Shown one piece after another: positions 59,301 to 64,000 of a stretch of 64,000 bases of DNA. The first letter of the stretch is position 1; every line of letters starts with the position of its first letter. The DNA is taken from NCBI GenBank assembly GCA_052387775.1, contig JBQTIV010000051.1, forward strand, positions 375 through 64,374, written 5' to 3'. This DNA is from Betaproteobacteria bacterium (GTDB taxonomy: Bacteria > Pseudomonadota > Gammaproteobacteria > Burkholderiales > JACQAP01). The translations under genes and the position numbers were made by a program. A model generated the notes under the pieces. That model was not told where the DNA came from. It was given only the letters and a program-made list of their open reading frames with translations, and did no database searches.

Positions 59301-62300
59301 TCAAGCGCCCCGGTTCCGCATAAATTCCTTCAGCACTTTTCCCGTATGAGTCTGTGCCTTCGCAACAGTTTCCGGTGGGCCCTGCGCCACGATGCGGCCG
59401 CCGCCGTCTCCGCCCTCGGGGCCGAGATCGACGATCCAGTTGGCATCGGCCATCACATCGAGGTTATGCTCGATCACCACGACTGTATTTCCGGCATCCA
59501 CCAGCCGGTGCAGCACACGGATGAGTTTTTCCACGTCCGCCATGTGCAGTCCGACGGTGGGTTCATCGAGCACGTAAAGCGTGCGCAAGGCGCGAGGCGA
59601 GAGGCGTGAGGCGAGAGGCGTTTCCGGCCCCGACTTCTCGCCGGTGGCAGGCTCTACACCCAGGCGCACCTTCGCGAGCTCGGTGACGAGCTTGATCCTT
59701 TGCGCTTCGCCACCCGATAGGGTCGGGCTCTGCTGGCCGACGGTGAGATAGCCCAGTCCCACGTCCTGCAGCAGCCGCAACGCATGATGGATCGAGGCGT
59801 GTGCGGAGAAAAATTCAACCGCCTCGTCCACGTTCATCATCAGCACGTCGCCAATGGATTTGCCCTTGAAGCGCACGGCCAGCGTCTCCTGGTTGAATCG
59901 CCGGCCGCCGCAGACTTCGCAGGACACCTTTACGTCCGGAAGAAAGCTCATTTCTATTTTCCTCAACCCCTGCCCTTCGCAACCCTCGCAGCGCCCGCCC
60001 GCCGTGTTGAACGAGAACCGGGTTGGCGCATAGCCACGCATGCGCGCTTCCGTGGTCGCTGCGAACAGTTTGCGGATCGCGTCCCAGAACCCGACATACG
60101 TCGCCGGGCAGGAACGCGGCGTCTTGCCGATCGGCGCCTGGTCCACTTCCAGCACCCGAGCGATTTGGTCGGCGCTCCCAATGGATCGACAGCCGATCAA
60201 ATCCAGTGACGAGTGACGAGTGACGAGTGATGAGTTGCTTTTCTCTGCTTTCGGCTTTTGCCTTTTGCCTGCCGATTTCCGTTGCAGCGAGCCGTGGCGC
60301 GCCCCAACGAGGCGTTGCAGGTTCGCGTACAGCACGTCGTGCGCCAGGGTCGATTTGCCGCTGCCGGACACACCGGTTACACAAGTGAGCCGTGCCAGCG
60401 GTATGCGCACGTCGATATTCCTGAGATTGTGCAAATGCGCGCCGGCTATCTCCAATGCCGGATGCCTGGGCGTGGTCTCGCGTCGTTCCACGAGCGGATG
60501 GCGCAGCGGCTGCGCGAGAAAGCGGCCAGTTACCGATTCCGGCGCCTTCACGAGATCGGCGATCGTGCCCTCCGCCACGACATGGCCGCCGAGCCGGCCG
60601 GCGCCCGGGCCGAGGTCGACCAGGTGATGCGCGCGACGTATCGTTTCTTCGTCGTGCTCGACGACCAGTAGCGTGTTGCCCTTGCGTTCCAGCTTCTCCA
60701 GCGTATCGAGCAGGATGCGGTTATCGCGCGCATGCAGGCCGATGGTGGGCTCGTCGAGGATGTAACACACGCCGCGAAGGTTCGAGCCAAGCTGTGCTGC
60801 GAGCCGAATGCGTTGCGCTTCGCCCCCGGACAGTGTCGGCGCAGAACGATCGAGTGTCAGATAATCGAGCCCGACTTCCGCGAGGAAACCGAGACGGCTG
60901 CCGAGTTCCGCCAGCAGGTCGCGCGCGATTTCCCGCTCGCGTCCGGCCAACTCGAGGTCAGCGAACAACTTCGCGAGTCCGGCGACCGGCTGCGCGCCAT
61001 AATCGGCGATTGAACGATCCCGCCACAGTACCGCGAGTGCCTCGCGGTTCAGACGCTTGCCCTCGCATTGCGGACAGGGCTCGTCCACTTCCAGCCATTC
61101 AATCCACGAATCGAGGACATGGTCCTCGGCGCCGGTGCGGGTACGCTCCTCGTCCCAACCGACGTCGGCAATCTGCAATCCGGTGCCGTAACAATCCGGG
61201 CACCAGCCGTGCTTCGAGTTATAGGAAAATAATCTCGGATCGAGTTCGGGAAAGCTGCGTCCGCAGGAAGGACAGGCGCGCCTGGTCGAGAACACCTGCT
61301 CGACCATTGCTTCGTCCTTCATGATTCGGTCCACGGGCGCGATGACGTGTACGACACCCTTGCCGTATTCGAGCGCGCGCTTGAGCGCCTCTCGCAGCAA
61401 GTTCTCGTTTCCCGGCCGGACTTCGAGGTCCGCCACCGGCAATTCGATGACGTGCTCCTTGAAACGGTCGATGCGCGGGAACGGGCTCACCGGCAGGAAC
61501 TCGCGATCCACACGCAGGTAGGAATGGCCCTTGCCACGGGCCCATTTTGCCAATTCCGTGTAGACGCCCTTGCGGTTCACCACCAGCGGCGCAAGCAGGC
61601 CAATGCGCCCCCCCCGGTACTCACGCAGCAGTCGCGCGGCGATGGCCTGCTCGCTTTGCGGTTCGATCGGCACCTTGCAGTCAGGGCAATGCTGCACGCC
61701 CAGTTTCACAAATAGCAGGCGCAGGAAATGATGGATCTCGGTTAGCGTGCCCACCGTGCTCTTGCTCCCGCCACGACTGGTTCGCTGCTCGATCGCCACT
61801 GTGGGCGGAATGCCGCGCACCGAATCCACGTCCGGACGCGAGGCCGGCTGCACGAATTGGCGGGCATAGGCGTTCAAAGATTCCAAATAGCGGCGCTGGC
61901 CTTCGGCGAAGACGATGTCGAAAGCCAGCGTGGACTTGCCGCTGCCCGACACACCGGTTACCACCGTGAAGCGCTCGCGCGGGATCGACAGATCGATGTT
62001 CTTCAAGTTGTGTTCTCGTGCACCGCGCACGTGAACACAATGATGAGTGTTGAGTGATGAGTAACGAGTAGCCTGCGCATTCGCCCTCGGCTCGGCTTGC
62101 GTCGGGGCAAGGGAGGGCACCAGCGACGTTTCGTATTCGCGCAGAGCTCCTCCTGTATGTGAGGTAACGCACGCCGCAACTTGTTGCGGCGTGCCTGTGG
62201 CGACGATCTCCCCGCCGGCGTCGCCGCCCTCGGGGCCGAGGTCCACGATCCAGTCGGAGGCGCGGATCACGTCGAGGTTGTGCTCGATGACCACCAGCGA

Positions 62301-64000: not shown

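Follow-up and report, generated by a model that had tools for sequence, protein, structure and literature searches.

Heptamer repeat arrays in frame within the variable loops of a double UvrA gene from a Betaproteobacteria metagenome-assembled genome

A gene for a double (tandem-duplicated) UvrA protein carries four in-frame arrays of head-to-tail 7-nt units in a 64,000-nucleotide stretch of DNA from a Betaproteobacteria bacterium (assembly GCA_052387775.1, contig JBQTIV010000051.1, positions 375 to 64,374 of the forward strand). This whole stretch is referred to as the window, and all positions are those of the window unless another locus is named. The arrays, here called I1 to I4 in the order of their positions, were first noticed in a sequence-only reading of the window. 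We consider that they are probably passengers, that is, heptamer simple-sequence repeats (SSRs) of a lineage-wide family that have been filtered by reading frame, by orientation and by the tolerance of the loops in which they lie. The observation of four in-frame arrays is confirmed, and its first interpretation was essentially right. It can be refined in three respects: the loops are hypervariable throughout the protein family, the common orientation of the arrays is a forced filter, and two of the arrays seem to have been brought in by recombined segments.

The 3′ 4.7 kb of the host gene occupy positions 59301–64000 on the minus strand, and its 5′ end lies beyond the window. The stop codon is at 59301–59303, and the frame 59301–63998 is open over 1566 codons, with more to come past the window end. 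The open reading frame (ORF) is 100% identical to the partial protein P0001 of a metagenome-assembled genome (MAG), annotated as UvrA, and full-length orthologs of about 1900 aa are found in many Burkholderiales MAGs at 70–88% identity. Comparison with solved UvrA chains gives E-values of 1e-182 to 1e-255 for the two halves. Against TIGR00630 (cut-off 729.8), unit 2 scores 1028 bits and unit 1, which is cut by the window edge, 686 bits. The Walker A, signature and Walker B motifs are visible in the translation, with two ATP-binding cassette (ABC) modules in each UvrA unit. Unit 2 contains PF17760 (UvrA_inter, the UvrB-interaction domain) but is missing about 90 aa opposite residues 305–411 of 9gxk, a gap that falls at 61125–61175 (unit-2 residues ~289–305). 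A profile search gave no PF17755 match in unit 2, the N-terminal part of unit 1 being outside the window. As far as the sequence can tell, the domain set of unit 2 would be neither the classic class I form nor the class II form without the UvrB-binding domain, and the host appears to be a UvrA paralogue-like double protein. The sequence-only reading had described a family of repeats colonizing surface loops of an essential-type ATPase without breaking its frame. The intact frame and the length-variable loops stand, but "essential-type" goes beyond what the sequence shows for this paralogue-like host. The suspicion of a pseudogene can be set aside, as the gene is intact and its protein is more conserved among orthologs than fourfold-degenerate sites are.

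Tandem Repeats Finder (TRF) places period-7 arrays within a few bases of the positions first reported, with 3.1–4.7 copies at the four sites, all coded from the minus strand. I1 (59588–59621; TRF unit AGGCGAG/AGGCGTG, 4.7 copies) reads (A)CGCCTCT CGCCTCA CGCCTCT CGCCTCG CGCCT on the coding strand, which can be written as the units GCCTCTC GCCTCAC GCCTCTC GCCTCGC GCCTTGC. I4 (62407–62433; GAGGCGT, 3.9 copies, 95% matches) reads CGCCTCT CGCCTCA CGCCTCA CGCCTC, or GCCTCTC GCCTCAC GCCTCAC GCCTCGC. I2 (60205–60235; AGTGACG, 4.4 copies, 95% matches) reads ACTCATC ACTCGTC ACTCGTC ACTCGTC ACT. I3 (62041–62069; TGATGAG, period 7 or 14, ~3–4 copies, 80–86% matches) reads ACTCGTT ACTCATC ACTCAAC ACTCATC A, and it is the weakest and most degenerate of the four. 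I1 and I4 thus share the unit GCCTCNC, and I2 and I3 share ACTCRTC. The peptides attributed to the four arrays (PLASRLSPRA, SSLVTRHSSLD, ATRYSSLNTHH and PASRLTPHASP) are all found in the minus-strand translation.

As the source is a metagenome-assembled contig, the arrays might be suspected of being an assembly error or a coincidence of low complexity. In 2000 codon shuffles of the gene, the mean was 0.078 arrays at a score of at least 8, against five observed, and no shuffle reached the observed count; at a score of at least 12, none of the 2000 had any array, against three observed. Contigs assembled independently from other samples have homologous arrays at the same codons, and the reading frame is intact. 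An artefact therefore deserves almost no credence and is effectively refuted. Over the whole window, a comparison of periods gives 10 arrays of period 7, against 0–3 for each of the periods 4–6 and 8–13 (the seven period-14 arrays are re-detections of period-7 repeats). Five of the twelve period-7 arrays in the window lie inside the 4.7-kb double-UvrA gene, and the same window-wide scan found none inside the other ~52 kb of coding sequence.

All four arrays have TGA on the plus strand, which is the non-coding strand of this gene, as had been pointed out from the letters of the sequence. This arrangement is forced: with a 7-nt unit and at least three units, a TGA-bearing sense strand stops every frame. 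The orientation rule is thus an unavoidable selection filter and not a property of the element. In the same way, 7 and 3 have no common factor, so that three or more units are read in three phases and give one cyclic heptapeptide (ASRLTPH, SSLVTRH) for any entry frame. For example, GCCTCAC in three or more in-frame units encodes ASRLTPH in any phase, and for this reason the I1 and I4 peptides are nearly identical. The all-frames argument was made likewise for TAACTGA repeats (MacGregor 2015, PMC4679880).

In the protein, the arrays lie in loops, and the positions of I1 and I2 are short turns in solved UvrA structures. The I1 loop, of 26 aa (LGVEPATGEKSGPETPLASRLSPRAL; 59586–59663, minus strand), runs from the signature helix to the Walker B strand in the C-terminal ABC domain of unit 2, where 9gxk has two residues. 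The I4 loop, of 19 aa (RAGGFPASRLTPHASPKGS; 62394–62450, minus strand), is its equivalent in the C-terminal ABC domain of unit 1; query residues 524–535 (12 aa) lie opposite three chain residues of 2r6f, leaving nine without a counterpart. The proposal that I1 and I4 use one unit at equivalent loops of the two halves therefore holds, and both loops are longer than in the solved chains; for E. coli UvrA, the sequence-only reading had put about five residues (KRGTGQ) there. The I2 segment (60171–60314, minus strand) follows the Walker A helix in the C-terminal ABC domain of unit 2 and has 48 aa against 19 in 9gxk. The alignment of unit 1 has no gap at the equivalent position, so that the extra 29 aa belong, as was claimed, to unit 2 only. 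I3 lies in the 35-aa linker between the units (EYETSL...NTHHCV; 62034–62138, minus strand), the unit-1 alignment with 2r6f ending at residue 620 and the unit-2 alignment with 9gxk starting at 656. An AlphaFold model that covers unit 2, and hence I1 and I2 (mean predicted local distance difference test, pLDDT, 78.6), predicts that both are disordered: each is coil with pLDDT below 50, at unit-2 residues 794–815 for I1 (pLDDT 35–46) and 590–610 for I2. We considered a function for the repeat peptides at the protein level and rejected it, since they are unconserved across lineages, are predicted to be disordered and show no synonymous excess over non-synonymous change.

An alignment of 120 orthologs shows that length varies most at these four sites and at a fifth, "site 0", which lies beyond the window on the 5′ side, at about aa 231–262 of the full-length protein. 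The standard deviations of length at the five sites are 12.1, 11.1, 7.5, 6.9 and about 4. The I1 loop ranges from 13 to 62 aa (standard deviation 6.9), I4 from 5 to 72 aa (11.1) and I3 from 6 to 56 aa. The loops are thus a family-wide feature and the arrays a lineage-specific filling. Long, hypervariable loops characterize the whole double-UvrA family, so that the arrays fill pre-existing permissive loops and do not create them from nothing.

The closest relatives for which DNA is available, loci L081 to L087, have 74–88% protein identity to the window gene. Their arrays occupy matching codons. L081 and L085/L086 have arrays at site 0, I4, I3 and I1; L085 and L086, two of three contigs on record for one protein (P0007), carry identical arrays. 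L082 has arrays at site 0, I4, I3 and I2, and L083 at site 0 and I3. All of these arrays have the stop-free orientation. The I4 array is orthologous in the window, L081, L082, L084 and L085, and the I1 array in L081, L084 and L085, so that both are orthologous across species within this range of identity. Orthologs without arrays have unrelated loop sequences, in agreement with the suggestion that the extra segments are lineage-specific. Palindromes of the form CCCTCTCCCC...GGGGAGAGGG take the place of arrays at I4 and I1 in L083 and L087. These resemble repetitive extragenic palindromic (REP) elements, are followed by GGGGTGAGGGG, and lie in frame with peptides such as SPRIRGERTGVRG; they have the GTGAGG/CCTCAC core in common with the heptamer units. 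A second class of repeat therefore uses the permissive sites of the heptamer arrays.

The wider set comprises 167 loci among the matches listed in genome and metagenome scans, mostly orthologs of 50–73% identity. Within these loci, the uvrA-like ORFs contain 37 period-7 arrays, against 1, 8, 0 and 4 arrays for periods 5, 8, 10 and 11. About 25 of the 37 fall at window residues ~515–524, ~620–645, ~1239–1254 and ~1459–1461; seven lie N-terminal of the window start, six of them at site 0 (aa ~243–263 of the full-length protein) and one further N-terminal, and the remaining five are at window residues 65, 269, 1161 and 1173. The units at the UvrA loops are lineage-specific and include GCCTCRC, CCTCACC, ACTCATC, GGCGACT, AACCGCC, TTCCGCC and GACTCAG, and in I3 of L092 and L098 there are in-frame inverted pairs of arrays. 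By coding class, as assigned by a crude gene caller, the 838 kb of this gene contain 37 arrays, the 626 kb of other genes three borderline ones and the 342 kb of intergenic or edge DNA 22. The density in the double-UvrA gene is thus about ten times that of its neighbouring genes, and per base of loop it is far above that of intergenic DNA. Among these loci, L022, L057, L063 and L064 encode double UvrA proteins of the betaproteobacterial type (57–70% identity) in MAGs labelled Kiritimatiellia, Streptomycetaceae, Victivallales or Synechococcus; the odd labels are probably binning errors in public records.

The arrays in the gene were proposed to belong to a family that is also found between genes, and two identities bear this out. 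Firstly, the intergenic array 9183–9222 has the AGTGAYG unit of I2 and I3 on the plus strand. Secondly, the exact 25-mer AAGGATGAAGGCGGAAGGCGGAAGG is common to the I2 insert of the ortholog L089 (L089 9371–9395) and to window 671–695. The latter is part of an intergenic inverted heptamer pair, (AAGGCGG)3 + (CATCCTT)3 read on the minus strand (616–696; TRF and inverted-repeat search), and this is the element most closely related to L089's composite I2 insert. The intergenic arrays of the window are mostly inverted pairs (616–696, 2743–2919, 9183–9319, 11255–11337 and 50716–50788), with a further array at 25823–25847. The I2 insert is itself a composite in which a spacer separates a (GGCGRAA)n arm from a second arm; L082 and L089 have it in intact form, and the window has a decayed one. 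In the window, the array 60205–60235 is the right arm, and a mini-array at 60255–60270 (minus strand; TRF CTTTTGC, 2.3 copies; coding AGGCAAAAGGCAAAAG), aligned with L082 and L089, is the remnant of the left one. The 616–696 element folds as a hairpin (folding free energy −40.9 kcal/mol, z −4.9), and the L089 I2 insert folds as well (z −2.4). Folding of the four arrays of the window gave z values of +1.8 to −1.1, and mRNA hairpins formed by them were ruled out on these values.

Such elements could have been directed to the loops actively, either by a dedicated enzyme, such as a Y1 transposase that resembles the REP-associated tyrosine transposase (RAYT) and acts on hairpins, or by template switching. 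A complete inverted-pair element lies in frame at I2 of L089 and at I3 of L092 and L098, the 25-mer is shared with an intergenic copy in another organism, and lineage-specific units recur at five sites. We nevertheless regard site-directed colonization as quite unlikely. The I2 boundaries have no visible target-site duplication or conserved target motif, proto-repeats in ancestral loops (GGCGAAC GGCGAAG in L084) would allow expansion in situ, and no transposase turned up, although none was searched for. The patchy distribution of I2 is, moreover, at least partly due to recombination of the flanking segments.

I2 is the only site with a clean presence/absence insertion. The 48-nt segment is present in the window and in L082, and it is lacking in L081, L083, L084, L085 and L087. 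The insert occurs in about 10 of the 120 orthologs, in at least three separate places on a neighbour-joining tree. Three independent insertions, which this tree would suggest, were given less weight because the flanks show recombination mosaicism. The I2 and I3 tracts of the window and their flanks match the P0072/P0101 clade better than they match the nearest relatives, P0002–P0004, and share with that clade the stretch GEIVATGTPQQ.AAC.TSHTG.ALREYET. The P0072/P0101-like tracts extend over 62034–62200 and 60171–60330, and the rest of the gene is closest to P0002–P0005. To judge from these matches, the window gene is a recombination mosaic whose loops travel with recombination tracts, and homologous recombination seems to have brought in the tracts of I2 and I3. 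Such a mosaic explains why I2 and I3 have the unit ACTCRTC in common while I1 and I4 have GCCTCNC.

Some of the arrays that remain in place are more conserved than simple tolerance would explain. In distant pairs that retain them, array DNA and fourfold-degenerate sites have conservation values of 0.84 and 0.56 (L081–L085) and of 0.76 and 0.51 (window–L085), in a small sample of 75–90 nt per pair; in pairs with replaced loops, the DNA of the array sites is less conserved than fourfold-degenerate sites. The arrays could accordingly be conserved cis-elements acting at the DNA or RNA level, for instance sites for heptamer-binding proteins or pause sites for transcription or translation, with the peptide as a by-product. 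The elevated conservation includes third codon positions, GCCTCAC arrays recur in the unrelated Vreelandella and Flaviaesturariibacter, and the tenfold density in this gene points the same way. The small sample tells against this explanation, as do several other observations: the units at equal loops are wholly different between lineages, close relatives have swapped whole loops for unrelated sequence or palindromes, some lack the I2 or I1 arrays, and the four arrays of the window have no significant RNA structure. We regard a function of this kind as rather unlikely. G-quadruplexes were rejected separately, as there are no G3 tracts; GAGGCGT, AGTGACG and TGATGAG contain at most GG.

The variability of the loops raises the question of whether the tracts are hypermutable switches, that is, a contingency locus that turns the UvrA paralogue on and off by one 7-nt unit or tunes a linker in 21-nt steps. 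The length of the unit is not divisible by three, four to five arrays lie in one DNA-repair gene with strong enrichment, and the loops differ even within clusters of at least 90% protein identity, in which differences concentrate in the loops. The changes there are replacements (whole loops included) or indels of 1–15 aa, not clean 7-aa steps. No truncation or frameshift was found at any array among 45 members of ten such clusters, 35 of them additional members; P0001 is the sole member of its cluster. The split gene P0142/P0144 was weighed as a candidate off allele and rejected, its frame being broken in the signature-motif region and not at an array. The arrays are also short (3–5 units) and interrupted by variants, which lessens slippage, and they keep their positions from one species to another; phase variation is usually a matter of host-adapted bacteria and of their surface or restriction-modification genes (PMC4692102). 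A contingency locus is accordingly improbable.

We propose that the arrays came to their present state as follows. Members of the family typically have about four units and, between genes, usually form inverted pairs that fold as hairpins. An array would be retained in a gene only if it passed three filters: the sense strand would have to be the stop-free one (CNTCANN type), the other having TGA in three frames within three units; the net change in length would have to be a multiple of three; and the encoded peptide would have to fall within a disordered, length-tolerant loop. Its five permissive loops make the double UvrA a sink in which arrays and, in relatives, REP-like palindromes collect. 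Resident arrays may then persist for long periods, partly homogenized, probably by slippage or gene conversion, and may be exchanged between lineages with flanking gene segments by homologous recombination. The hairpin partner arm would decay inside the gene.

Several points weigh against passenger status. Tolerance offers no obvious explanation for a roughly tenfold enrichment in one gene whose permissive loops make up ~5% of its length. The conservation of the arrays above fourfold-degenerate sites hints at either DNA-level constraint or a directional homogenizing process. We know of no mechanism that creates or moves heptamer arrays, and the analysis covers the 64-kb window and gene-centred loci. 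As the enrichment and the conservation are not explained by tolerance, a DNA- or RNA-level function, site-directed colonization and phase variation each keep a small probability. A broader proposal, to which we give a small share of belief, is that the five double-UvrA loops are preferred landing or expansion sites for heptamer arrays in many proteobacterial lineages. It is suggested by the tenfold density, by the complete inverted pairs in frame and by the conservation of array DNA above the neutral level.

Heptameric repeats are known from other bacteria. Heptamers are the commonest long SSRs in many genomes, including those of Burkholderia and Xanthomonas (Mrazek et al. 2007, as cited in PMC4679880). 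Described families include GGGAATC in Xanthomonas and GGGGAYT in Nostoc (Rehm et al. 2015, PMC4692102), and TAACTGA in Beggiatoaceae and cyanobacteria (MacGregor 2015, PMC4679880). In Xanthomonas, the GGGAATC repeats show a preference for four units, may be single or inverted, overlap with stop codons and are intragenic in 7–11% of cases (PMC4692102). The arrays described here resemble these families and the cyanobacterial short tandemly repeated repetitive (STRR) sequences in being dispersed, mostly intergenic tandem 7-nt units, of which there are about four. They are likewise single or inverted, and the stop codon of the gene upstream often abuts the array or is provided by it. An intragenic minority is found only in the stop-free orientation, with positions partly conserved between related species. 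They differ in that their units (GYGAGGC, AGTGAYG, AAGGATG and AAGGCGG) have no G3 tracts, which makes the G-quadruplex rationale of the class described by Rehm et al. 2015 inapplicable; in that several units occur in one genome; and in that four to five arrays lie in one gene. Such a concentration in one gene, with loops also occupied in the orthologs of other lineages, is not reported in the papers of Rehm et al. 2015 and MacGregor 2015. Geobacter metallireducens has elements of four heptanucleotides (consensus GGACCGG, 49 copies) for which a role as regulatory RNA was proposed (Aklujkar et al. 2009, PMC2700814). They have a single conserved unit, belong to another taxon and were reported without an analysis of protein loops or orthologs (PMC2700814).

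Three other kinds of repeat invite comparison; one of them, the REPIN/RAYT systems, where REPIN denotes a REP doublet forming a hairpin, has a likeness in the inverted repeat doublets of the window. Rickettsia palindromic elements (RPE), the classic example of repeat DNA lying in frame within proteins, are palindromic, ~100–150 bp long and conserved in sequence. Ogata et al., in Science in 2000, reportedly found them in frame in protein-coding genes. Both families are dispersed and non-coding, enter functional genes in frame and add a peptide at surface or non-critical positions; here, the family is both intergenic and in frame, and the I1 and I2 peptides lie in predicted unstructured coil. 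The difference is that we deal with 28-nt tandem heptamer arrays, among which a likeness to palindromes is limited to the composite I2 insert, as seen intact in L089. RPE-like hairpins are formed by that insert and its intergenic copy and not by the four arrays of the window. The third kind, SSR contingency loci, as in Haemophilus and Neisseria, consists of long uninterrupted tracts with documented on/off alleles, mostly in surface or restriction-modification genes. Like them, the arrays are tandem repeats within coding DNA whose unit length is no multiple of three, but they are short and imperfect and had no frameshift alleles among the 45 cluster members.

The window contains further repeats. 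The intergenic inverted pair of AGTGAYG-type arrays at 9183–9319, with the I2/I3 unit, lies between two convergent genes and brackets a terminator-like hairpin with a T-run (GGGCCGCGATGCGGCCCTTTTTTT, ~9249–9266); a 9-mer array, CGTCACGGC in five copies, adjoins it at 9334–9377. An octamer inverted pair, CACGAAGA and TCTTCGTG, lies at 2743–2772 and 2890–2919 with 117 nt between its arms. Two unrelated genes end, at 607–631 and 3577–3601 (plus strand), in a common GTTGAA[C/G]AGC(AAGGATG)n, and in both the TGA stop is provided by the second array unit, so that the last residues of both proteins (...SKDEG*) are supplied by the repeat element. The motif AAGGTGTCAGGAACG occurs six times in the window at no more than two mismatches, against 0.04 expected (58108–58122, 59243–59257, 22091, 42690, 44729 and 49066); two exact copies lie 16–49 bp downstream of the stop codons at 58057–58059 and 59225–59227. 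An Rfam search of the window gave no match.

Elsewhere, a contig end of Vreelandella titanicae (L168 1–375) has (GCCTCAC)13 located 3′ of what by eye appears to be the 3′ end of a 5S rRNA and of a terminator-like hairpin, with a degenerate GTGAGG-rich arm upstream of the array. ASRLTPH-repeat "proteins" of 40–70 aa are spurious gene calls over such arrays, and some of them bear misleading names of enzymes. When (ASRLTPH)6 was used as a protein query, the matches were only spurious ORFs of 34–74 aa over long intergenic arrays, a result that is uninformative on short arrays within genes.

This is a clear, though not unprecedented, case of repetitive DNA within a working gene, and it indicates that non-coding repeats can build or lengthen protein loops. 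For annotators it is a warning that low-complexity peptides of the ASRLTPH kind, and tiny ORFs composed of them, are the footprints of repeat DNA. Heptamers are the most abundant long SSRs in many large GC-rich bacterial genomes, and the double-UvrA family offers a natural experiment on their spread: at five orthologous, alignable sites, arrays appear, persist, decay, are replaced and recombine, which makes the rates and modes of their turnover measurable. If the enrichment in this repair ATPase exceeds what tolerance allows, it would point to a new mobilization mechanism or a new kind of cis-element. If the loops are indeed preferred sites across proteobacterial lineages, this would mean a new structure- or sequence-directed array mechanism, or selection for mutable linkers or cis-elements in a DNA-repair ATPase.

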